IMG/VR virus record: IMGVR_UViG_2531839662_000023
Strand: one strand, 5' to 3'
Source of the DNA: a virus
Lineage: Duplodnaviria > Heunggongvirae > Uroviricota > Caudoviricetes
Length of the DNA: 26,750 nt
Below, piece after piece: positions 1,981-26,750 of the stretch (the stretch's first letter is position 1; every line of letters begins with the position of its first letter). Made by a program: the position numbers and the translations under genes. The notes below the pieces were generated by a model. The model saw only the letters and a program-made list of their open reading frames with translations, ran no database searches and had not been told where the DNA came from.

Positions 1981-2871
1981 TCAGGCTGCCAGATCATTGT
2001 TTCCGATGGAAGCATAATAAGCTTTTTCTGCTTCTGCCGGAGGAGTATGGCCCAGCCTTCCCAGCAATCGTCGATTGTTATACCAGTCCACCCACGTTAG
2101 TGTGGCCAGTTCCACTTCTGCACGGTTTTTCCAGCTCTTACGGTGTATTACCTCCGCTTTGTAAAGACCATTGATGCTCTCAGCCATCGCGTTGTCATAC
2201 GAGTCGCCTGTACTCCCTGTTGATGCCAGTAATCCGGCTTCTTTTAGTCGCTCCGTATAGGCCAGTGACACATACTGAGAGCCTTTATCGCTGTGATGGA
2301 TGGTGCCAGACGGACGACGGGCCCACAACGCCTGCTCCAGCGCATCCAGCACGAATGTCGTTTCCATAGACGATGAGACCCGCCACCCCACGATGTATCC
2401 GGCAAACACATCAATGATGAACGCCACATAGACGAAGCCCCGCCATGTGCTGACGTAAGTAAAATCAGCCACCCACAGCTGGTCAGGTCGTTCTGCCACG
2501 AACTGACGGTTTACGCGGTCGCCTGCGGCAACGGCTTTCCGGCTGATGGTCGTACGGACCTTTTTACCCCGGAGAACACCGGCAAGTCCCATAACCGCCA
2601 TGAGGCGCGCCACTGTACATCTGGCCACCCTGATTCCTTCCCGTAACAACTGACGCCAGACTTTACGCACACCGTACACCTGATGATTTTCATCGTATAC
2701 GCGCTGTATCTCTCTCTTCAGCCAGTCATCGTGCTGCGCACGGGCACTGCGTTTATCCGGATGATGTCGCTGTTGCTGACAATGGTAATACGTTGACGGG
2801 GCAATATGCAGTTCGCTGCATACCGGTCCGACCCCGTACTGCTCACGCAGCTTATCCAGCAGTGGCATCAT
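1981..2871 (-). CDS. IS3-family transposase OrfB (DDE integrase core)
   Basis: 296 aa with an rve-type DDE region (WVADFTYV...HHSDKGSQY...[10 protein letters not shown]). Overlaps orfA by 4 nt, the usual arrangement for programmed frameshifting in this family. Confidence 0.85.
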
Positions 2872-3194
2872 TTTTTCCAGAGGCGGTCGAACTCCGCCTT
2901 CGCAAAATAAGCGGAAGCCTGGCGAAGGATATCGTTACTGCGGCGCAGTTCACGATTTTCACGTTCCAGCTCTTTCAGACGCTGACGTTCAGCGCTGGTG
3001 AGCCCACCATCACCGCCCCCGGTATCCCGCTCATGCTGGCGAACCCAGACACGCAGAGTCTCCGGCGTACAGCCAATCTTTGGGGCAATGGAACAAATTG
3101 CCGCCCACTGTGAGTCATATTCATCCTGACTTTCCAGAACCATACGAATCGCCCGCTGACGGACTTCGGGGGAAAAACGAGTATTTTTAGTCAT
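2868..3194 (-). CDS. IS3-family transposase OrfA (HTH)
   Basis: 108 aa beginning [22 protein letters not shown] with a leucine-zipper-like C-terminus ([27 protein letters not shown]). Recalled as IS629/IS1203-type OrfA. Confidence 0.85.
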
Positions 3195-3268: not shown

Positions 3269-3949
3269 TCATCGCCATTGCTCCCCAAATACAAAACCAA
3301 TTTCAGCCAGTGCCTCGTCCATTTTTTCGATGAACTCCGGCACCATCTCGTCAAAACTCGCCATGTACTTTTCATTCCGCTCAATCACGACATAATGCAG
3401 GCCTTCACGCTTCATGCGCGGGTCATAGTTGGCAAAGTACCAGGCATCTTTTCGCGTCACCCACATGCTGTACTGCACCTGGGCCATGTAAGCCGATTTT
3501 ATTGCCTCGAAACCACCGAGCCGGAATTTCATGAAATCCCGGGAGGTAAACGGGCATTTCAGTTCAAGGCCGTTGCCGTCACTGCATAAACCATCGGGAG
3601 AGCAGGCGGTGCGCATACTTTCGTCGCGATAGATGATCGGGGATTCAGTAATATTCACGCCGGAAGTGAATTCAAACAGGGTTCTGGCGTCGTTCTCGTA
3701 CTGTTTTCCCCAGGCCAGCGCCTTAGCATTAACTTCCGGAGCCACACCGGTGCAAACCTCAGCCAGCAGGGTGTGGAAGTAGGACATTTTCATGTCAGGC
3801 CACTTCTTTCCTGAGCGGGGCTTTGCTATCACGTTGTGAACTTCTGAAGCGGTGATGACGCCGAGCCGTAATTTGTGCCATGCATCATCCCCCTGTTCGA
3901 CAGCTCTCACGTCGATCCCGGTACGCTGCAGGATAATGTCCGGTATCAT
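3269..3949 (-). CDS. exo: Lambda-type 5'-3' exonuclease (Red alpha)
   Basis: 226 aa, near-identical by recall to lambda Exo ([40 protein letters not shown]...GEQWR). Appears intact. Confidence 0.9.
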
Positions 3950-4326
3950 GCTGCCACCTTCTGCTCAGTGGCTTTCTGTTTCAGGAATCCAAGAGCTTTC
4001 ACTGCTTCGGCCTGTGTCAGTTCTGACGATGCGCGAATGTCGCGGCGAAATATCTGGGAACAGAGCGGCAATAAGTCGTCATCCCATGTTTTATCCAGGG
4101 CGATCAGCAGAGTGTTAATCTCCTGCATGGTTTCATCGTTAATGGCTTTTTTGCTGGCCCCGTGGCGTTGCAAATGATCGATGCATAGCGATTCAAACAG
4201 GTGCTGGGGCAGGCCTTTTTCCATGTCGTCTGCCAGTTCTGCCTCTTTCTCTTCACGGGCGATCTGCTGGTAGTAACGCGCCCAGCTCTGAGCCTCAAGA
4301 CGATCCTGAATGTAATAAGCGTTCAT
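3946..4326 (-). pseudogene. In-frame fusion of gam N-terminus to bet C-terminus
   Basis: Residues 1-60 match lambda GamS ([17 protein letters not shown]...[10 protein letters not shown]). Residues 61-126 match the lambda Bet C-terminus ([57 protein letters not shown]). Overlaps the exo start by 4 nt, as bet does in lambda. Confidence 0.7.
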
Positions 4327-5698: not shown

Positions 5699-6388
5699 TT
5701 AACCATGCTTCCTGTACGTCTGCGGCATGCTTCCAATGACCTTACCGAATATGAACACCCGGTTCATCTCGTCTTTCTCGATCGGGTCCCACGGCGAGTA
5801 GCTCTTGTTATCAGAGATAACCAGCAGCTTATCCTTCATCATTTGAAGACGTTTTACATGGGCAGTGTCGTCGTACAGAAACGCATAGATGCCATCACCG
5901 TCGAAAGATTTAACAGTGATATCAACGAACAGCAGGTCACCTGGTTCGATCGTCCCTGACATGCTGTCACCTCGCACGTTAATGATGCGGATATTTTCCG
6001 CCTTCCTGCCATCGAACATGTGACGAGCATCGTCAAACGAGTACTCAACCGAGCGTAGAACTTCTACAAACTCACGGTTGATTACACCTGGCCCGGCACT
6101 GACTTCTATATCAAGAACGTCAATTTTGAAGTATTTGGAATGGCTGACAGTTGATTGTATTGGTTGCACTGTACTGTCTGACATATTTCCAACGCCAGAA
6201 GATAACCATTCTGCGCGTACACCCAAAGCGTTCGCGATCTCCACGATTTTAGTTGTTTGGTTAGCTTTCCCTGTTTCGATTTTCTGAATAGCAGCCTGGC
6301 TAACCCCGACCAAATCCCCAAGCGCCTTTTGTGTAAGGCCTCGCGCTAATCTGGCTTCTTTAAGTCTTTCTGAGAGTGTTGTTTTCAT
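5699..6388 (-). CDS. cI: CI-type phage repressor (HTH_XRE plus S24 LexA-like peptidase)
   Basis: 229 aa. N-terminal HTH (LTQKALGDLVGVSQAAIQKIETGK) and C-terminal S24 autoproteolysis domain (GDSMSGTIEPGDLLFVD...KRL). Divergent from the cro-like gene. Confidence 0.85.
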   Translation of the reverse strand: MKTTLSERLKEARLARGLTQKALGDLVGVSQAAIQKIETGKANQTTKIVEIANALGVRAEWLSSGVGNMSDSTVQPIQSTVSHSKYFKIDVLDIEVSAGPGVINREFVEVLRSVEYSFDDARHMFDGRKAENIRIINVRGDSMSGTIEPGDLLFVDITVKSFDGDGIYAFLYDDTAHVKRLQMMKDKLLVISDNKSYSPWDPIEKDEMNRVFIFGKVIGSMPQTYRKHG

Positions 6389-8348: not shown

Positions 8349-9046
8349 AAAACATCGCCGCACAGATGGTTAACTTTGACCGTGAGCAGATGCGCCGGAT
8401 CGCCAACAATATGCCGGAACAGTACGACGAAAAGCCGCAGGTACAGCAGGTAGCGCAGATCATCAACGGTGTGTTCAGCCAGTTACTGGCAACTTTCCCG
8501 GCGAGCCTGGCTAACCGTGACCAGAATGAACTGAACGAAATCCGCCGCCAGTGGGTTCTGGCTTTCCGGGAAAACGGGATCACCACAATGGAACAGGTTA
8601 ACGCTGGAATGCGCGTAGCCCGTCGGCAGAATCGACCATTCCTGCCATCACCCGGGCAGTTTGTCGCCTGGTGCCGGGAAGAAGCATCTGTTAACGCCGG
8701 GCTGCCAAACGTCAGCGAGCTGGTTGATATGGTTTACGAGTATTGCCGGAAGCGTGGCCTGTATCCGGATGCAGAGTCTTATCCGTGGAAATCGAACGCG
8801 CATTACTGGTTGGTTACCAACTTGTACCAGAACATGCGGGCCAATGCGCTGGCTGACGCGGAATTACGGCGCAAGGCTGCCGATGAACTGACCTGTATGA
8901 CAGCGCGAATTAACCGTGGTGAGACGATACCTGAACCAGTAAAACAACTTCCTGTTATGGGCGGTAGACCTCTAAATCGTGCACAGGCTCTGGCGAAGAT
9001 CGCAGAAATTAAAGCTAAGTTCGGACTGAAAGGAGCAAGTGTATGA
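8345..9046 (+). CDS. Replication protein P (DnaB helicase loader)
   Basis: 233 aa, near-identical by recall to lambda P (MKNIAAQMVNFDREQMRRIANNMPEQYDEKPQVQQVAQ...AKFGLKGASV). Confidence 0.9.
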   Translation: MKNIAAQMVNFDREQMRRIANNMPEQYDEKPQVQQVAQIINGVFSQLLATFPASLANRDQNELNEIRRQWVLAFRENGITTMEQVNAGMRVARRQNRPFLPSPGQFVAWCREEASVNAGLPNVSELVDMVYEYCRKRGLYPDAESYPWKSNAHYWLVTNLYQNMRANALADAELRRKAADELTCMTARINRGETIPEPVKQLPVMGGRPLNRAQALAKIAEIKAKFGLKGASV

Positions 9047-9345
9047 CGGGCAAAGAGGCAATTATTCATTACCTGGGGACGCATAAGAGCTTCTGTGCAC
9101 AGGACGTTGCCGCGGTAACAGGCGCAACCGTAACCAGCATAAATCAGGCTGCGGCTAAAATGGCGCGGGCAGGAATCCTGGTCGTTGATGGTAAGGTCTG
9201 GCGAACGGTGTATTACCGGTTCGCTACCAGAGAAGAATGGGAAGGAAAGGTGAGCACGAATCTGATTTTTAAGGAGTGTCGCCAGAGTGCCGCGATGAAA
9301 CGGGTATTGAGGGTATATAAAAGAACATCAATGGGAACACAATGA
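9043..9345 (+). CDS. ren: Ren protein (Rex exclusion resistance)
   Basis: 100 aa beginning MTGKEAIIHYLGTH...VTSINQAAAKMARAGILVVDGKVWRTVYYRFATREE, matching lambda Ren by recall. Overlaps the P stop. Intact here. Confidence 0.85.
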   Translation: MTGKEAIIHYLGTHKSFCAQDVAAVTGATVTSINQAAAKMARAGILVVDGKVWRTVYYRFATREEWEGKVSTNLIFKECRQSAAMKRVLRVYKRTSMGTQ

Positions 9346-9412
9346 TGAAACAGGTGAGTTGAGTTCAAACTGTAGTACAATTCTCTCCAGTTTGAACAGG
9401 AAAGAATATGCT

Positions 9413-9745
9413 ATGAACCCTTATATTTATCTTGGTGGTGCAATACTTGCAGAGGTCATTGGTACAACCTTAATGAAGTTTTCAGAAGGTTTTACACGGT
9501 TATGGCCATCTGTTGGTACAATTATTTGTTATTGTGCATCATTCTGGTTATTAGCTCAGACGCTGGCTTATATTCCTACAGGGATTGCTTATGCTATCTG
9601 GTCAGGAGTCGGTATTGTCCTGATTAGCTTACTGTCATGGGGATTTTTCGGCCAACGGCTGGACCTGCCAGCCATTATAGGCATGATGTTGATTTGTGCC
9701 GGTGTGTTGATTATTAATTTATTGTCACGAAGCACACCACATTAA
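9413..9745 (+). CDS. emrE: Small multidrug resistance efflux transporter EmrE
   Basis: 110 aa from the internal ATG at 9413 (MNPYIYLGGAILAEVIGTTLMKFSEGF...), with four TM segments and the conserved Glu in TM1. The track ORF carries an 18-aa upstream extension. Confidence 0.9.
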   Translation: MNPYIYLGGAILAEVIGTTLMKFSEGFTRLWPSVGTIICYCASFWLLAQTLAYIPTGIAYAIWSGVGIVLISLLSWGFFGQRLDLPAIIGMMLICAGVLIINLLSRSTPH

Positions 9746-9775
9746 AATAATTTGTTTCTAAACGACTAAAATATG

Positions 9776-9818
9776 GAGGCTCTTATATTTATATGAGCCT
9801 CGTTTTATGCTTTTTGTT
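9776..9818 (+). terminator. Rho-independent terminator after emrE
   Basis: Stem GAGGCTC(9776-9782)/GAGCCTC(9795-9801) followed by GTTTTATGCTTTTTGTT. Confidence 0.55.
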
Positions 9819-9999
9819 AATGTCTTTATTTTTTATGTATTCTTTTGTGCTTTCAAGATTATGGCGTAAGAAAATTGCAATACGATTATTGTTGTATATT
9901 CAAGATAATGTGACCTTAATTGTCTTTTTAAATAAAAAATAAACAAAAATTATATCCCACCACTAAGGTTTATAAAAGCATACGTTAGCAGGTGTCACC

Positions 10000-10569
10000 A
10001 TGAAAAAAGCCATAGCATATATGCGATTTTCATCACCAGGTCAGATGTCTGGCGACTCATTAAACCGACAGAGAAGACTTATTGCTGAATGGTTAAAGGT
10101 AAATAGTGATTATTATCTTGATACCATAACATATGAAGATTTAGGATTAAGTGCATTCAAAGGAAAGCATGCACAATCAGGAGCTTTTTCGGAATTTTTA
10201 GATGCTATAGAGCATGGTTATATATTGCCAGGAACTACATTGTTAGTTGAAAGTCTGGACAGACTTTCAAGAGAAAAAGTCGGTGAAGCGATTGAACGTC
10301 TGAAATTGATTTTGAATCACGGTATTGATGTTATAACTCTTTGCGACAATACAGTCTATAATATTGGCTCTTTGAATGAGCCATATTCATTAATAAAAGC
10401 CATACTTATAGCACAAAGGGCAAATGAAGAAAGCGAGATAAAGTCAAGTCGGGTTAAATTATCATGGAAGAAAAAACGGCAGGATGCACTGGAATCAGGT
10501 ACGATTATGACGGCGTCTTGTCCGAGATGGCTCTCCTTAGATGACAAAAGAACGGCTTTTGTTCCAGAC
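10000..10569 (+). pseudogene. ybcK: Large serine recombinase, N-terminal part, interrupted by IS2
   Basis: Resolvase-type catalytic domain (IAYMRFSSPGQ...LLVESLDRLSRE). Homology stops at the IS2 end (10570). Reading continues in frame after the IS at 11901. Confidence 0.7.
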
Positions 10570-10580
10570 TGGATTTGCCC

Positions 10581-11486
10581 CTATATTTCCAGACATCTGT
10601 TATCACTTAACCCATTACAGGCCCGCTGCCGCAGATATTCCCGTGGCGAGCGATAACCCAGCGCACTATGCGGATGCCATTCGTTATAATGCTCGAACGC
10701 CTCTGCAAGGTTCTTTGCTGCCGTTAACCCGTCTGGTTTGGGCATGATACTGATGTAGTCACGCTTTATCGTTTTCACGAAGCTCTCTGCTATTCCGTTA
10801 CTCTCCGGACTCCGCACCGCCGTGTTCTTCGGTTCAAGTCCCAACATCCGGGCGAACTGGCGTGTTTCATTAGCCCGGTAGCATGAACCATTATCCGTCA
10901 GCCACTCCACTGGAGACGACGGAAGATCGTTGCCGAAGCGGCGTTCCACCGCTCCCAGCATGACGTCCTGTACTGTTTCACTGTTGAAGCCGCCGGTAGT
11001 CACCGCCCAGTGCAGTGCCTCACGATCACAGCAGTCCAGCGCGAACGTGACACGCAGTCTCTCTCCGTTATCACAGCAGAACTCGAACCCGTCAGAGCAC
11101 CATCGCTGATTGCTTTCTTTCACGGCCACTCTGCCTGTATGTGCCCGTTTCGATGGCGGTACAGCAGGTTTTCGCTCAAGCAACAGCGCATTCTGGCGCA
11201 TGATCCGGTAAACACGTTTGGCATTGATCGCAGGCATACCATCAAGTTCTGCCTGTCTGCGAAGCAGCGCCCATACCCGACGATAACCATACGTGGGCAG
11301 CTCTCCGATAACATGGTGTATACGGAGAAGCACATCCGTATCATCAGTGTGACGACTGCGGCGGCCATCCATCCAGTCATCGGTTCGTCTGAGAATGACG
11401 TGCAACTGCGCACGCGACACCCGGAGACAACGGCTGACTAAGCTTACTCCCCATCCCCGGGCAATAAGGGCGCGTGCGCTATCCAC
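10581..11486 (-). CDS. insD: IS2 transposase InsD (OrfB)
   Basis: 301 aa ([30 protein letters not shown]...), recalled as IS2 InsD. Confidence 0.9.
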
Positions 11487-11809
11487 TTTTTTGCCCGTCC
11501 ATATTCAACGGCTTCTTTGAGGAGTTCATTTTCCATCGTTTTCTTGCCGAGCAGGCGCTGGAGTTCTTTAATCTGCTTCATGGCGGCAGCAAGTTCAGAG
11601 GCAGGAACAACCTGTTCTCCGGCGGCGACAGCAGTAAGACTTCCTTCCTGGTATTGCTTACGCCAGAGAAATAACTGGCTGGCTGCTACACCATGTTGCC
11701 GGGCAACGAGGGAGACCGTCATCCCCGGTTCAAAGCTCTGCTGAACAATTGCGATCTTTTCCTGTGTGGTACGCCGTCTGCGTTTCTCCGGCCCTAAGAC
11801 ATCAATCAT
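11444..11809 (-). CDS. insC: IS2 transposase InsC (OrfA)
   Basis: 121 aa from the internal ATG ([40 protein letters not shown]...), recalled as IS2 InsC. The track ORF has a 15-aa extension. Confidence 0.9.
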
Positions 11810-11900
11810 CTGTTCTCCAATGACTAGTCTAAAAACTAGTATTAAGACTATCACTTATTTAAGTGATACTGGTTGTCTGGAGATTCAGGGGGCCAGTCTA

Positions 11901-12862
11901 CAGACCCCGACAGGGTGAAAACTATTGAGCTAATTTTTAAACTCAGGATGGAAAGGCGCTCATTGAATGCAATAGCCAAGTATTTAAATGATCATGCTGT
12001 AAAGAATTTCTCAGGAAAAGAAAGTGCATGGGGACCTTCTGTAATTGAAAAATTATTAGCGAATAAAGCTCTGATAGGTATTTGCGTACCTTCATATCGT
12101 GCAAGAGGGAAAGGGATAAGTGAAATCGCTGGCTATTATCCCAGAGTCATATCAGATGATTTGTTTTACGCTGTACAGGAAATTCGGTTGGCACCTTTTG
12201 GTATTAGCAATAGTAGCAAGAATCCTATGCTAATAAATCTACTTCGAACAGTTATGAAGTGTGAGGCTTGTGGTAATACCATGATTGTTCATGCGGTATC
12301 TGGAAGTTTGCATGGCTATTATGTTTGTCCGATGAGAAGATTACATCGATGTGACAGGCCATCAATAAAAAGAGATTTGGTTGATTATAATATCATTAAT
12401 GAATTGCTTTTTAATTGTAGCAAAATTCAACCAGTTGAAAACAAGAAAGATGCTAATGAAACTTTAGAGTTAAAAATTATTGAGCTTCAGATGAAAATTA
12501 ATAATTTAATCGTTGCATTGTCTGTCGCGCCTGAAGTTACCGCTATAGCAGAGAAAATAAGACTATTAGATAAGGAATTACGAAGGGCTTCGGTATCATT
12601 GAAAACTTTGAAGAGTAAAGGTGTAAATTCATTCAGTGATTTTTATGCTATTGACTTAACCAGTAAAAATGGACGAGAGTTATGCCGTACACTTGCCTAT
12701 AAAACATTCGAAAAAATCATAATTAATACGGATAATAAAACCTGTGATATCTATTTTATGAATGGCATTGTTTTTAAACACTATCCTTTAATGAAAGTAA
12801 TATCCGCCCAGCAGGCGATAAGTGCTCTCAAATATATGGTTGATGGTGAGATTTATTTCTAA
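11901..12862 (+). pseudogene. ybcK: Large serine recombinase, C-terminal part
   Basis: Recombinase and zinc-ribbon region (CEACGNTMIVHAVSG...YYVCPMRR) plus coiled coil. Removing the IS and one CAGAC copy restores ...[17 protein letters not shown]... in frame. Confidence 0.7.
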
Positions 12863-13326
12863 ATAATGATCTCGGATTTTAAGTTATGCTATGGTGATAA
12901 AGTGCAAGACAGAATTAATTATCTTTGACGAAACTTAATGGGTAATTACTTTGTTTGCTCCCACAAGCGAGTTTTGTACGGCTGTATTGGGGTAGTAAAT
13001 GAGCTATACAATCTTAATCATTTGTTAGGTGAGAACTCTTGGTCGCAGATTCAAATACTGAAAATACGTGACAAATTATTATGAGCAAAATGGTGTATGT
13101 CACGTATTTTGAATGGTAGGTTAAAAAATAACACCGACTTTCGTAGGTGTTACTAATAATAAAGCAGAGTTTTTAGATAGTATCAATGTGCTTTGTGTAT
13201 ATTGTGGCAAATAATTGGGTTGGGGGTACAATTGTGATTGCTTTTGCATGAACATTGCGCCTTTATGCATAATGAGATAAAGGAATATCAAATAAAATAA
13301 CGATAGGTCATAACAAAGAGGTTTTT

Positions 13327-13878
13327 ATGAAAACACTTATCGTTTCAACTGTATTGGCATTCATAACATTTTCTGCGCAGGCTGCAGCATTTCAGGTCAC
13401 TAGTAATGAAATAAAAACAGGAGAGCAACTTACAACGTCTCATGTCTTTTCTGGATTTGGGTGTGAAGGTGGTAATACATCGCCCTCATTAACCTGGTCT
13501 GGTGTTCCTGAAGGTACCAAAAGCTTTGCCGTAACTGTATATGATCCAGATGCACCTACAGGCAGTGGTTGGTGGCATTGGACTGTTGTTAATATTCCAG
13601 CAACAGTAACATATTTGCCCGTTGATGCAGGGAGACGTGATGGAACAAAACTGCCGACTGGTGCTGTTCAAGGCCGAAATGATTTTGGCTATGCTGGGTT
13701 TGGTGGCGCATGTCCTCCTAAAGGAGATAAACCACATCATTACCAGTTTAAAGTATGGGCTCTAAAAACTGAAAAGATTCCTGTAGATTCTAACTCCAGC
13801 GGAGCGTTAGTTGGTTATATGCTTAATGCTAATAAAATCGCAACCGCTGAGATAACACCAGTTTATGAGATAAAGTAG
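13327..13878 (+). CDS. ybcL: Periplasmic PEBP/RKIP-family protein YbcL
   Basis: 183 aa with signal peptide MKTLIVSTVLAFITFSAQA and PEBP motifs (YDPDAPTGSGWWHW...PPKGDKPHHYQFKVWAL). Confidence 0.85.
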   Translation: MKTLIVSTVLAFITFSAQAAAFQVTSNEIKTGEQLTTSHVFSGFGCEGGNTSPSLTWSGVPEGTKSFAVTVYDPDAPTGSGWWHWTVVNIPATVTYLPVDAGRRDGTKLPTGAVQGRNDFGYAGFGGACPPKGDKPHHYQFKVWALKTEKIPVDSNSSGALVGYMLNANKIATAEITPVYEIK

Positions 13879-13887
13879 GGTGAGAGT

Positions 13888-14685
13888 ATGCTGGCAAGAG
13901 GTAAGACTAACTTAAAGATCGAAGAAATACGGATGCATAAACATCATGAGATTCATAGGGTTAAGCCTCTTATGCCAGCTTTGTGTCGTATCCGTCAGGG
14001 AAAGAAAGTTATCAATTGGGAGACGCATACTTTAACTGTTGATAATAATCAAATAATATTATTTCCTTGTGGTTATGAATTTTATATTGAGAATTATCCT
14101 GAAGCAGGGCTTTATCTTGCAGAAATGCTTTACTTACCCATTGATTTAATTGAGAGTTTCCAAAAACTTTATACGGTAACTGATCAAATACGTAACAAAA
14201 CAAGTTTCTTTTTACCTCAGAATCCTGAGTTAATATATTGTTGGGAGCAACTAAAAACATCTGTTTCCCGAGGCTTCTCAACTAAAATTCAGGAGCACTT
14301 AGCAATGGGCGTTCTACTTTCGTTAGGAGTGAATCATGTTAATCATTTACTTTTATCATATAGTAAACAATCATTGATAAGTCGTTGTTATAACCTGCTG
14401 CTATCCGAACCCGGCACAAAATGGACAGCAAACAAGGTTGCTCGATATCTCTACATTTCTGTTTCTACATTACATCGCCGTCTAGCAAGCGAGGGGGTAA
14501 GTTTCCAAAGTATACTGGACGATGTGAGGTTAAATAATGCGTTGTCTGCTATACAAACGACGGTAAAACCTATAAGCGAGATTGCCAGAGAAAATGGTTA
14601 TAAGTGTCCTTCTCGTTTTACTGAAAGATTTCATAATCGTTTTAATATAACACCAAGAGAGATAAGAAAAGCTTCCAGAGAGTAA
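13888..14685 (+). CDS. ybcM: AraC-family transcriptional regulator
   Basis: 265 aa with a C-terminal AraC-type HTH ([21 protein letters not shown]...[26 protein letters not shown]). Confidence 0.8.
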
Positions 14686-14801
14686 AAGTGTTTTAAGAAG
14701 GAGCAATTCTATCGATTTTGATTTTGGGAAATCAACACGGCATAATTATGTCACCGGAGCCTGAACAACTCCGGTGACTTCTGCGCTAAACGGGGACGTT
14801 T

Positions 14802-14903
14802 ATGCGCACATACAATCCAAACTCTCTTCTCCCTTCACAGATGCAGAAATGCACCTGCAATTCTTTGCATCTAGCGTTTGACCTCTGCGGAGGGGAAGCG
14901 TGA
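14802..14903 (+). CDS. ylcH: Small protein (33 aa), YlcH-like
   Basis: Own translation: ATG at 14802 gives [33 protein letters not shown], with its stop overlapping the ybcN GTG start (GTGA). Name assigned by position and size. Confidence 0.4.
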
Positions 14904-15355
14904 ACCTCTCACAAGACGGCATCAAATTACATCGCGGCAACTTCACCGCTATCGGTCGGCAGATCCAGCCTTATCTGGAGGAGGGCAAATGCTTTCGCAT
15001 GGTGCTTAAACCGTGGCGTGAGAAACGCAGTCTTTCCCAGAATGCACTCAGCCACATGTGGTACAGCGAAATCAGTGAATACCTCATCAGCAGGGGTAAA
15101 ACGTTCGCCACTCCAGCTTGGGTAAAAGATGCTCTCAAACACACATATCTCGGTTATGAAACCAAAGACCTGGTTGATGTCGTAACCGGTGATATCACCA
15201 CTATCCAGTCGTTACGCCATACCTCCGATCTTGATACCGGAGAGATGTATGTCTTCCTGTGTAAGGTTGAAGCCTGGGCGATGAATATTGGTTGCCACCT
15301 GACTATTCCACAGAGCTGCGAGTTCCAGCTGCTGCGCGACAAGCAGGAGGCGTAA
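14900..15355 (+). CDS. ybcN: NinB-like protein (DLP12 YbcN)
   Basis: 151 aa, GTG start preceded by GGAGGGG. First gene of a tightly coupled nin-region operon. Confidence 0.8.
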
Positions 15356-15525
15356 TGGCTACACCGCTTATTCGTGTCATGAACGGACACATCTACAGAG
15401 TACCAAATCGTCGTAAGCGTAAACCTGAGCTGAAGCCATCCGAAATACCAACACTGCTCGGATATACCGCCAGCTTGGTTGATAAAAAATGGTTGCGACT
15501 GGCAGCAAGGAGGAGTCATGGCTGA
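15355..15525 (+). CDS. ninE: NinE-like protein
   Basis: 56 aa from [32 protein letters not shown]. Start overlaps the ybcN stop (TAATG). Confidence 0.75.
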   Translation: MATPLIRVMNGHIYRVPNRRKRKPELKPSEIPTLLGYTASLVDKKWLRLAARRSHG

Positions 15526-16962: not shown

Positions 16963-18060
16963 TTAGAACTGGTAAACCAGACCTACAGCAACGATGTCAT
17001 CAGTGCTTACACCGAGTGCTTTAGTGAAGTCATTTTTGTCAAGCAGGTTGATTTTGTAATCAACGAAAGTAGACATATTTTTGTTGAAGTAATAGGTTGC
17101 ACCTACATCAACATATTTGACTAAGTCCTGATCGCCCCATACTCCAAGATCCTTACCTTTAGATTGCAGGTAAGCAACGGACGGACGCAGACCGAAATCG
17201 AACTGATATTGTGCAACAGCTTCGAAGTTTTGGGCTTTATTAGCAACGAAGTGATCAGCAAATACAGTCATATTCTGGGTTTCAGAATAGGTAGTGGCCA
17301 GGTAAATGTTGTTAGCGTCATATTTCAGACCTGCGGCCCAAACTTCTGCATTTTTACCGGAAGCAAATACTTCAGGAAGAACTTTCCCTGCATTAACTTG
17401 AGTGTCGGTACGATCAGATTTCGCATAAGTTGCACCGATACCGAATCCTTCGTATTCATAGGTAGCAGAGAAACCGAAGCCATCACCGTTACCTTCAGTG
17501 TAGTTATCGAAATCGCTACGATCGTTTTTGCCTTGGTACTGAGCAGCAAAGTTCAGACCATCAACCAGACCAAAGAAGTCGTTGTTACGATAGGTTGCAA
17601 CACCAGTTGCACGTTGAGTCATGAACACGTCGGTTTGAGTCCAAGTGTCACCACCGAATTCTGGCAGGACGTCAGTCCACGCACCGATGTCGTATGCTAC
17701 ACCGTAGTTACGGCCGTAATCGATGGAGCCGTAGTCACCGAATTTCAGGCCAGCGAAGGCAAGACGGGTTTTATCTTTGGAGGAACCTTGAGATTCAGCG
17801 CGGTTGCCTTTGAATTCATATTCCCACTGACCGAAACCAGTCAGTTGATCGTTGATTTGGGTTTCACCTTTGAAGCCAAGATGGGCATAAGTAGTATCAC
17901 CATCATCTGCATCATTAGAGGAGAAGTAGTGCTTAGCATTAACTTTCCCGTACAGATCCAGCTTGTTACTGTCTTTATTATAAATTTCAGCTGCCTGAGC
18001 AGACATCGCCATCAGTACTGATGCAGCTACAGCAGAAATTGCCACTGTTAATTTTTTCAT
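16963..18060 (-). CDS. nmpC: General porin, OmpC/OmpF/PhoE family (NmpC-like), intact
   Basis: 365 aa from [30 protein letters not shown]..., with signal peptide and a C-terminal beta-strand ending in F (VGLVYQF). The track ORF adds 20 aa upstream. Confidence 0.85.
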
Positions 18061-18487
18061 CGTGAGCCCTTTTTTTGAACTATTATTAAAAAATGATGTC
18101 ACTGCGCGATAAATATTCATCTAATCAATGTGATTATTTCAAGATGTAAGTTTTGGTTTCTCGTTTGATTTGTGAAGTAGATCTCTATTTTTATCTGAAC
18201 TTTTTTCTATCGAATCCTATTCATGGCTCTTGGCTGAATAAAAATAAATCTATTAGCCAATTTATATTAACGGCTGTTATTTATAAGCGCTCTATAATTT
18301 GAAGGTTCAATTTAAACCGGCTAAAAATAACACTGGAAATTATTTTTTGGTTATTTGTTGAGATTTGCTTATGTATTTGTAGTGGTGTTTTCAATACTCG
18401 GTAGCATTCTCTCAAATATCATTTAGTGGTTTACGTACGTAAAAAATTGGTTATGCTGTTAAGAGTGGTTACTTCGTCACACAGCTT

Positions 18488-25193: not shown

Positions 25194-25379
25194 ATGCTGC
25201 CGCAGCATAGCGATATTGAAATAGCCTGGTATGCTTCAATACAGCAGGAGCCGAATAGCTGGAAGACCGTCACCACACAGTTCTACATCCAGGAATTCAG
25301 TGAGTATATTGCGCCACTGCAGGATGCTGTAGATCTGGAAATCGCAACGGAGAAAGAAAGATCGTTGCTGGAAGCCTGA
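25194..25379 (+). pseudogene. tfaX: Tail fiber assembly protein (Tfa) fragment with frameshift
   Basis: C-terminal Tfa motif YIAPLQDAVDLEIATEKERSLLEA. Homology continues after the stop in another frame (KKYRVLLNRVDTSVAPDIEW, to about 25450). Confidence 0.6.
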
Positions 25380-26000
25380 AAAAAGTATCGGGTGCTGCTA
25401 AACCGTGTGGACACTTCCGTAGCACCAGATATCGAGTGGCTTATTCAACCATAATAAACAGTATGTATATCATAGGTTATTAATTGTGAGTTTTTTCGGT
25501 GTGTTATTTGTTTGTTTGATGTTATGCTTTTGCGCCCCAAAAGGTTGTTTAGATGTATTTTATCAATTGATTTTCAATATCGTTTAATAAAGAAAAATTA
25601 AGCAAGCTGGATGTTGGTTTTTTGTTAATTGAATGGTTCTAATAATGTTTTTTTACTGTTGTTGAATGTGACTTGATAAGAAATGCAAGTAAAAATGATA
25701 CTCTTTTTATTTTAAATTCAAACGGTTGACATATATATAGCAAGAGGTTTCAGGTGCGTTGTAGTGAGTTTATGTTAATAAAAAGTATAGTAAGCGTTGA
25801 AAAATGTAACTTTGAAATACGTTAGAATAAAAAACAATATACATATAATAATTTAATCTTAAATGAAATTTATTAAAATTTGCAAAAATATAATTTTGTG
25901 TATAAAAATATAAATGCACATCATCCTGATTATGATTGTGTATTTAATTGGTTGTTATTTGACTGCTATCAACTTGTTTTAATTTTATGATAGGTGCAAG

Positions 26001-26750
26001 ATGGATTATGTTTGCTCCGTAGTTTTCATCTGTCAATCATTTGATTTAATTATAAACAGGAGAGTTATCTCGTTCAAAAAAAATTCATTGTTTATTGTAA
26101 GCGACAAAATTAGAAGGGAGTTACCAGTATGCCCCTCTAAACTAAGAATTGTTGATATAGATAAGAAAACATGTTTATCCTTTTTTATCGACGTGAATAA
26201 TGAGCTGCCTGGCAAATTTACTCTTGATAAGAATGGCTATATTGCTGAAGGGGAACCTCCATTATCGCTTGTTTTTTCTCTGTTTGAAGGGATTAAAATA
26301 GCAGACTCACACTCCCTTTGGTTAAAAGAAAGACTATGTATATCCTTACTTGCCATGTTCAAAAAACGCGAAAGTGTAAATTCTTTTATACTAACAAATA
26401 TAAATACATTTACCTGTAAAATTACTGGAATAATCAGTTTTAATATTGAGCGGCAATGGCATTTAAAAGATATTGCGGAATTGATTTATACGAGTGAAAG
26501 TTTAATAAAAAAAAGATTAAGGGATGAAGGAACATCATTTACTGAAATATTGAGAGATACTAGGATGAGGTATGCAAAAAAACTCATAACTTCAAACTCT
26601 TATTCTATCAATGTCGTAGCCCAGAAATGTGGCTATAACAGTACTTCATATTTCATATGTGCATTTAAAGATTATTATGGTGTCACGCCATCTCATTATT
26701 TTGAGAAAATAATCGGCGTCACAGATGGAATAAACAAAACAATTGACTGA
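26001..26750 (+). CDS. appY: AraC-family transcriptional activator AppY
   Basis: 249 aa ([21 protein letters not shown]...) with a C-terminal AraC HTH ([24 protein letters not shown]), recalled as AppY. Stop is at the window end. Confidence 0.85.

Follow-up and report, generated by a model that had tools for sequence, protein, structure and literature searches.

The window analysed here, a 26,750-nt stretch of viral DNA (IMG/VR record IMGVR_UViG_2531839662_000023), carries between the lambdoid gene ren and the NinB-like gene ybcN a block of cargo genes, emrE, ylcJ, ybcK, ybcL and ybcM, of which ybcK encodes a large serine recombinase and is split by a copy of IS2. The explanation that we consider probable, taken as a whole, is that this interval is an accessory (moron) slot of a DLP12/phage-82-type lambdoid prophage, that its cargo would have been acquired and exchanged through general and illegitimate recombination among lambdoid phages resident in the same host, and that YbcK would not be the agent of cargo exchange. 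The interval lies between conserved backbone genes, deviates from them in composition and holds varied occupants in close relatives, as is typical of a moron or accessory slot. Without IS2 the block comprises 4072 nt at 36.3% GC, compared with 51.2% in O-P-ren on the left and 51.2% in the linker and ybcN-rusA on the right, in agreement with the initial annotation of the window, which had described low-GC cargo interrupting a lambda-like backbone between ren and the nin genes. IS2 itself has 53% GC, resulting in a GC bump at 10.5–11.9 kb. Pfam searches likewise confirmed the four genes named in that annotation, emrE, the large serine recombinase gene ybcK, the PEBP-family gene ybcL and the AraC-type gene ybcM.

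The limits of the slot were set against viable sequenced phages that are 95–99% identical to the window in O-P-ren and in ybcN-rusA-Q and different in between. On the left, homology to phages lacking the module ends at 9309–9318, within the final ~10 codons of ren (9043–9345, plus strand; PHROG 142, Ren-like), so that these codons form part of the variable block. On the right, homology resumes at 14716/14717 in all comparisons, indicating that positions 14717–14899 are conserved backbone and not cargo. The extent originally given, 9346–14899, thus reflects a real slot between ren and nin, but the true limits are 9309/9318–14716, and ylcJ had been missed. Both outer breakpoints, 9309–9318 and 14716/7, are common to the recombinase-free cargo of sister phages, indicating that the ends of the block are limits of the slot and not attachment (att) sites of YbcK.

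The comparison with lambdoid relatives that had been suggested as a check found the block variably present and other cargo in its place. The arrangement emrE-ylcJ-ybcK-ybcL-ybcM occupies the slot in PhiR68_2, PhiR34_1, PhiR70_1 and DLP12. The trio emrE-ylcJ-ybcK is followed by a convergent alpha/beta hydrolase gene in Perceval, 4A7, 4C10, 1W, 3W, D2 and PhiR47_2, by small open reading frames (ORFs) in Turner, by a truncated rha and a 260-aa ORF in EC291, and by nothing in an O157:H7 prophage. The recombinase-free occupants comprise rha with small ORFs (PhiR5_1), an acyltransferase with a lipoprotein (PhiR30_1) and PD-lambda-1 with rha (PhiR26_1). With or without ybcK, all eight occupants measured have a GC content of 36–41%, compared with 51–52% in their flanks.

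The block itself is composite, consisting of a constant trio, emrE-ylcJ-ybcK, and an exchangeable module made up of a spacer termed x, ybcL and ybcM. In 80 of 80 IMG/VR contigs encoding YbcK (97–100% amino acid identity) the order and orientation are fixed, (P) ren-emrE-ylcJ-ybcK-variable part-linker-ybcN. The variable part is x-ybcL-ybcM in 30 contigs, a 3' fragment of rha in 43 (9 with an additional hydrolase gene and 9 with the 260-aa ORF) and nothing in 6. The trio is also constant in every E. coli genome sampled, and inverted or relocated copies of the block were found neither in the 80 viral contigs nor in the sampled genomes. Relative to the ybcK stop codon, the occupant types part from one another at +39, +66 and +125 nt, so that there is no single crossover point behind the gene. 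The rha scar after ybcK (occupant types b, c and g) corresponds to the 3'-terminal ~310 nt of rha as found intact in PhiR5_1 and PhiR26_1 and starts 125 nt past the stop codon, and the O157 type derives from the rha-fragment type by internal deletion. The alignments suggest that the junctions after ybcK are scars of illegitimate recombination and deletion rather than one repeatedly used crossover point.

Swaps of cargo would be anchored in the 3' end of ren on the left and in a ~150-bp linker with a promoter, a hairpin and orf33 on the right. This backbone linker (14717–14899, plus strand) contains a promoter-like pair (−35 at 14718–14723, −10 at 14741–14746), a hairpin with a 10-bp stem (14750–14778, plus strand; fold z = −3.5) and orf33/ylcH (14802–14903, plus strand), all of which are annotated in the 1996 phage 82 record X92588, where the hairpin is listed as a possible regulator-binding site. 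In PhiR26_1 (locus L007), which has no ybcK, the linker is present twice (3840–3994 and 5775–6040; 80–91% identity), one copy after each of two cassettes, a pattern that would be expected from recombination inside a shared linker, and the linker may act as a recombination anchor for cassette exchange. Record X92588 begins within the last 17 nt of ybcM and is identical to the window through the boundary. Since 48 nt are identical, the same cargo is probably present in classical phage 82. The nin backbone then begins with ybcN (NinB/Orf family; PHROG 72, 4e-52) at 14900–15355 on the plus strand.

YbcK is predicted to be a bona fide serine integrase that is under strong purifying selection in viable phages. 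The 5' part of its gene (10000–10569, plus strand) encodes the catalytic resolvase domain with the invariant catalytic residues, and the 3' part (11906–12862, plus strand) encodes the recombinase domain, a zinc ribbon, a coiled coil and a C-terminal beta domain, as assigned by Pfam, an AlphaFold (AF2) model and Foldseek. The Pfam matches are Resolvase PF00239 (5e-19), Recombinase PF07508 (2e-14) and Zn_ribbon_recom PF13408 (8e-8). Residues R9, S11 and D87-R88-x-x-R91, as well as the zinc-ribbon cysteines C309, C312, C331 and C339, are invariant in 24 homologues down to 28% identity. The AF2 model (pLDDT 80.5) contains the catalytic domain, a long E helix, the recombinase domain, the zinc ribbon, a two-helix coiled coil at residues 367–429 (helices 367–397 and 401–429) and an extra C-terminal beta domain at residues 444–507. 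Over the full length, Foldseek matched the model to the SPbeta integrase (9dxd, 2e-19), PhiC31 (8e-14) and Bxb1 (3e-13) at 14–19% identity. The protein belongs to PHROG 95, "integrase" (4e-120); a profile search barely reaches the SPbeta integrase (1.5e-5), and a single-sequence search of the PDB with YbcK gave no match. The dN/dS of ybcK is 0.07–0.08 between alleles at a dS of 0.13, and the gene is intact in all 12 deposited phage records (11 phages). Taken together, domains, residues, fold, dN/dS and intact phage alleles point to a YbcK that is functional and selected. Besides its intact ybcK, Perceval encodes a tyrosine Int and Xis in their canonical location, and YbcK would therefore not be the main integrase of the phage.

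Expression of ybcK appears to be controlled in the 254-nt spacer between emrE and ybcK, which has 27% GC and contains ylcJ. A Rho/NusG-dependent terminator in this spacer keeps ybcK off in the K-12 lysogen (PMC4150792). This upstream terminator is the sole functional information that we found in the papers searched, none of which assigns a recombination function to ybcK. The gene would be expressed when the pR transcript is antiterminated by N during lytic growth. Among alleles with 13% difference at synonymous sites, the ~140 nt before the ybcK start, including ylcJ, show almost no variation, and the DNA directly after the stop codon is poorly conserved between alleles. The invariance of positions 9845–9999 could reflect coding constraint on ylcJ, the Rho-terminator region or a recombinase site. 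Two 19-nt direct repeats (9845–9863 and 9892–9910) are located in the region upstream of ybcK.

In the window, ybcK is split after the resolvase domain by IS2 (InsC/InsD; 10570–11900, minus strand). The insertion has the hallmarks of IS2: it is 1331 bp long, ends in imperfect inverted repeats, encodes InsC/InsD with a frameshift and is flanked by the 5-bp target duplication CAGAC (10565–10569 and 11901–11905). It is ~99% identical to IS2 copies in phage records. Deleting IS2 and one CAGAC copy restores an open ybcK of 508 codons that is co-linear with the intact phage alleles. Among 5,426 complete E. coli genomes, ybcK is present in 1,424, with a single match covering at least 80% of the gene in 1,398, and the IS2-split arrangement occurs in ~11, indicating that the insertion is recent and confined to one lineage. 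The initial annotation had considered the whole block inactivated by IS2; the insertion is real and splits ybcK, but it destroys ybcK alone, and emrE, ybcL and ybcM stay intact.

A recombinase-free copy of the cargo is widespread in E. coli chromosomes. The commonest class of E. coli matches to the block is 2.15 kb long, ~91% identical and contains emrE, ybcL and ybcM (29 of 60 rows sampled at even spacing from the 4,524 matching records); in 2,925 of the 4,524 records the best match has 90–95% identity. The combination emrE-ybcL-ybcM without ybcK is found in about 2,200–2,900 of the 5,426 genomes, approximately half of E. coli. In ATCC 25922 (NZ_CP037449.1; locus L095, 7733–11858) these genes form a cargo island between fliE and yedK, ordered emrE-ybcL-ybcM-linker-Q'-porin, with ~90–92% identity to DLP12. 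Comparison of the island with PhiR68_2 showed that it retains the last 8 nt of ren with emrE, then ybcL-ybcM with the linker, and then the last ~100 nt of Q with the porin gene. The two internal gaps, ylcJ-ybcK-x (2083 bp, corresponding to window 9753–13171 and to L002 4754–6836) and ybcN to Q (1.77 kb), are both clean, and the 130 nt adjoining fliE match integrase genes of other strains. The ybcK gap has AATAAT on either side and 4 bases unaligned, although the AATAAT motif is uninformative because the DNA there has 27–33% GC. The island is a stripped DLP12-like prophage retaining only its four morons. Because the same remnant carries a second, similar deletion, loss of ybcK by deletion during prophage decay would be more parsimonious than insertion of a ybcK unit into a pre-existing emrE-ybcL pair. 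The dN/dS values between the DLP12 and the chromosomal island copies are 0.02 for emrE, 0.09 for ybcL and 0.13 for ybcM. The cargo genes would benefit the host, as they survive under purifying selection in a decayed prophage that has lost ybcK and all phage genes.

Outside E. coli, full-length homologues of YbcK with 40–61% identity were found in Atlantibacter, Yersinia, Erwinia, Ewingella, Citrobacter, Pantoea, Kluyvera and others, none of them beside emrE, ybcL or ybcM. The homologue of Atlantibacter RC6 lies in the nin region of another lambdoid prophage, in the order O, P, C5 methylase, recombinase, DUF1367, NinG and Q. Behind the tail-fibre genes, the final position next to host DNA is taken by the homologue in Erwinia (before lepA), Ewingella (after umuDC), Pantoea (after lom) and Yersinia; in Pluralibacter the homologue adjoins a tyrosine integrase. 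A 59%-identical homologue on Atlantibacter contig DHIB01000016.1 (L009, 10001–12432) is the terminal gene of a prophage, convergent with an intact ssrA (tmRNA) gene and 540 nt from its 3' end. A prophage end near the tmRNA gene is a classical position, normally that of a tyrosine integrase. Large plasmids of Duffyella (L181, 7001–8530) and Pantoea soli (L182, 7019–8527) carry homologues of 48–51% identity that stand alone between metabolic genes. A simple insertion into the Pantoea soli plasmid was rejected, since its two flanks come from blocks that other plasmids never carry side by side, which constitutes a synteny break. Elsewhere in Pantoea, a unit of 1808 nt, comprising the gene, 222 nt of upstream and 57 nt of downstream flank, is present at 94% identity and with sharp edges in two unrelated contexts (L023, 9778–11583; L032, 9780–11583). 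In L032 the unit lies between an intact O-P module and a 5'-truncated second copy of P; interruption of a P gene by the unit was rejected, because the missing 75 N-terminal codons are not located across it. A hydrolase gene (Abhydrolase_3/BD-FAE) is convergent after a YbcK-family recombinase gene both on an Enterobacter ludwigii plasmid (L027, 12342–13415) and in Perceval (L003, 6878–7921). The two hydrolases are ~28% identical to each other, and the arrangement may be a coincidence or a recurring pairing.

Against this background, the proposal of the initial annotation that the whole 5.5-kb block is a former island or transposon, once inserted or inverted by its own serine recombinase, appears extremely unlikely. 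Its GC content below that of the backbone, its variable presence among relatives and the recombinase gene inside it would fit such an origin. In islands moved by serine recombinases the recombinase gene lies at or next to one end of the element and the ends are att sites, whereas here ybcK is internal and the outer breakpoints are shared with recombinase-free cargo. The block is moreover modular and recombines internally, and instead of precise empty sites or several target sites every copy is found in the same slot and the same orientation, with no inversion in the 80 contigs. An invertible switch of the Hin/Gin/Cin/Pin type was rejected, as YbcK is a large enzyme of integrase type (508 aa compared with ~190 aa), the orientation is single in 80 of 80 contigs, and no flanking inverted sites beyond chance were detected. 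Att-like repeats were sought by a direct and inverted repeat search over 9000–15200 and by Smith-Waterman comparison with shuffles for five pairs of end regions in both orientations (10 tests), covering the ends proposed in the initial annotation, the true ends of the slot and the ends of a possible ybcK unit. The repeats predicted at the proposed ends do not exceed chance. The best one, a marginal direct match of 14/18 nt between 9378–9395 and 14703–14720, was reached by 8 of 500 shuffles, lies off the left breakpoint and fails correction for the 10 tests; it may reflect similar promoter regions. Three gapped patterns for precise-excision junctions, joining the 3' end of emrE to the downstream flank of ybcK or to the start of ybcL, had 0 matches in the IMG/VR viral contigs. 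Large serine recombinases need only a 2-bp crossover core and leave no long repeats. For this reason the negative repeat search is by itself weak evidence for the accessory-slot explanation, and the shared breakpoints are the stronger argument; an earlier site-specific insertion of some smaller unit would be compatible with the lack of repeats.

Because relatives of YbcK sit alone at prophage ends, in nin regions and at synteny breaks of plasmids, mobility could instead belong to a smaller unit, a self-mobile element of ~1.8–2.1 kb that encodes only the serine recombinase (ylcJ-ybcK with short flanks). In the window it would extend, without IS2, roughly from 9753 to 12903/13171 and would have inserted between emrE and ybcL, the island beside fliE being the uninterrupted state. 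The island indeed lacks exactly 9753–13171, and the Pantoea unit (−222/+57 nt) is similar in size to the E. coli unit (−247/+41 nt). The contexts of two Atlantibacter homologues with 76% mutual identity also differ, the first being a nin region and the second the end of a prophage. We nevertheless regard such an element as unlikely, since the second clean deletion in the island (ybcN to Q) and its terminal truncations make deletion of ybcK equally or more parsimonious, and the right edge is inconsistent, lying at 12903–12940 in one comparison and at 13171 in the other. There is in addition no E. coli copy outside the slot, emrE and ybcK stay together in 80 of 80 contigs, no empty-site junction was found in the viral contigs and no split target gene was found in Pantoea. 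Mosaic joints in phages normally fall at gene borders anyway, and the scattered contexts of the relatives are also what gene-sized mosaic exchange in phages would produce. In a further reading YbcK serves as a second integrase acting at another bacterial site, or as a docking enzyme by which circular cargo DNA is captured beside its gene. This is consistent with the complete serine-integrase architecture, coiled coil included, with purifying selection on ybcK in active phages already equipped with a tyrosine Int and Xis, and with the terminal, integrase-like position of relatives in prophages, one of them 540 nt from ssrA, and a docking role would explain why variable cargo starts 40–125 nt past the ybcK stop codon. 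This reading is, however, very unlikely. No E. coli prophage was found to have ybcK at a prophage–host junction or a permuted gene order, and really only two independent junction states exist after ybcK, the rest being deletion derivatives. Poor conservation right after the stop codon is not what a working attP would show, and phages without ybcK exchange cassettes in the same slot.

Several observations weigh against the explanation of the interval as an accessory slot filled independently of YbcK. The genes emrE, ylcJ and ybcK are never separate in E. coli phages, which linkage by itself explains only weakly. A recombinase with a dN/dS of 0.07 in active phages must act on something, and neither recombination sites nor a directionality factor for YbcK could be identified from sequence. 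The occurrence of the ~1.8-kb Pantoea unit in two unrelated contexts and of solitary plasmid homologues at synteny breaks fits some self-mobility of the recombinase gene. A generalisation to the family, that the YbcK-family recombinases of Enterobacterales are minimal single-gene mobile units of ~1.8 kb (~220–250 nt upstream, 40–60 nt downstream) or docking enzymes seeding cargo exchange, is distinctly unlikely. The family would then settle in prophage accessory slots, at prophage termini and at block junctions of plasmids, and the copy in E. coli would reside in the emrE-ybcL spacer in its own right and would not be carried along passively.

The cargo region is already known: it is an annotated and ordinary mosaic slot for morons in phages of the DLP12 type, with ybcK disrupted by IS2 in the present case. 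DLP12 of K-12 contains the same genes, emrE-ybcK-ybcL-ybcM, in the same order and slot, with 100% identity outside IS2. The two differ in that the window has ybcK split by IS2 and an intact ren, whereas K-12-like loci (L015 and L016) have ren split by an insertion, and in that the porin gene is intact in the window, unlike in the DLP12 region of K-12. Moron or accessory regions of lambdoid phages include rexAB, lom, bor and the nin region of lambda. The slot resembles these in lying between backbone genes, in being AT-rich, in its own terminator-like hairpin and in its varied occupants in near-identical phages, including PD-lambda-1 in PhiR26_1, a gene that Vassallo et al. reportedly described in 2022 as a defence gene. 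It differs from them in that the window's slot proteins match no known defence family, with 0 matches in a PADLOC search, and in that one occupant, a full-length serine integrase, is atypical of morons. YbcK shares the catalytic domain, recombinase domain, zinc ribbon and coiled coil with the serine integrases of SPbeta (SprA/YokA), PhiC31, Bxb1 and A118/LI. In contrast to these, ybcK is located away from the phage attachment region, the phage has its own tyrosine Int/Xis, and the protein has the extra C-terminal beta domain. Elements moved by large serine recombinases include Tn4451 (TnpX), Tn5397 (TndX) and SCCmec (CcrAB). These likewise link a large serine recombinase to resistance or accessory cargo, but in the block described here the recombinase is not at the element end, the limits are shared with recombinase-free cargo, and no empty sites or circular forms are evident.

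Since an annotated piece of DLP12 is re-described, the finding changes little. It does correct a tempting inference, in that a recombinase inside cargo need not have moved the cargo. YbcK is a conserved serine integrase in easily handled coliphages that already have a tyrosine integrase, and identification of its sites could uncover a second recombination function of lambdoid phages and make a new integrase available for genome engineering. The remnant beside fliE is a clean example of a host keeping morons (emrE, ybcL, ybcM and the porin gene) and discarding mobility genes.

Of the cargo genes themselves, emrE (9413–9745, plus strand) encodes a small multidrug resistance (SMR) efflux transporter (Pfam PF00893, 2e-35) and belongs to PHROG 1395 of the moron category. 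Directly after it, at 9776–9815 on the plus strand, lies a hairpin resembling an intrinsic terminator, with a stem of GGAGGCUC/GAGCCUC followed by the U-run GUUUUAUGCUUUUU (z = −2.7), and emrE behaves as a candidate self-contained moron with its own terminator-like hairpin. The small ORF ylcJ (9793–9942, plus strand) is annotated in RefSeq and matches the Pfam YlcJ-like family (1e-28). Spacer x (12863–13326, plus strand) is non-coding; within it, occupant type a loses homology to types b and c from 12903 to ~12940, and homology to the chromosomal island begins at 13172. Upstream of ybcL the spacer contains a perfect 13-bp inverted repeat at 13061–13073 and 13098–13110 (AAAATACGTGACA ... TGTCACGTATTTT) separated by a 24-nt gap (fold z = −3.6). 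The product of ybcL (13327–13878, plus strand) is a predicted secreted protein of the PEBP family (Pfam PF01161, 3e-42) with a signal-peptide-like N-terminus, and ybcM (13888–14685, plus strand) encodes an AraC-family regulator (Pfam HTH_18, 1e-16). Promoter-like matches in the slot numbered 17 compared with 15.2 in shuffles, and thus show no excess.

With respect to its setting, positions 9000–15400 of the window match the DLP12-type prophage integrated at argU of E. coli UMNF18 with 100% identity, and a few other strains with 99.9%. According to RefSeq and the ORF list, the gene order is intD, early-left genes with an IS3-family insertion, cI-like, cro-like, YdaT (at the cII position), O, P and ren, continuing with emrE, ylcJ, the split ybcK, ybcL, ybcM, orf33, ybcN, ninE, ybcO, rusA, ylcG, quuD, the porin gene and lysis genes. 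The IS3-family element lies at ~1981–3194 in the early-left region and contains an Rfam ALIL frameshift pseudoknot at 2797–2913 (minus strand, 121 bits); this IS3-type pseudoknot, outside the cargo slot, was the only Rfam match. Truncated bet and gam pseudogenes are located near the element. Because of the IS3-family element and these pseudogenes, the prophage is defective apart from the ybcK event. The nmpC-like porin gene (16963–18120) is intact in the window, and the sole difference from UMNF18 is a copy of IS1203 that adjoins the gene on its upstream side in that strain and is absent from the window. In K-12 the nmpC-like porin gene is disrupted by IS5. Across the final 1.5 kb of the window (25251–26750), the GC content falls to 25–35%.

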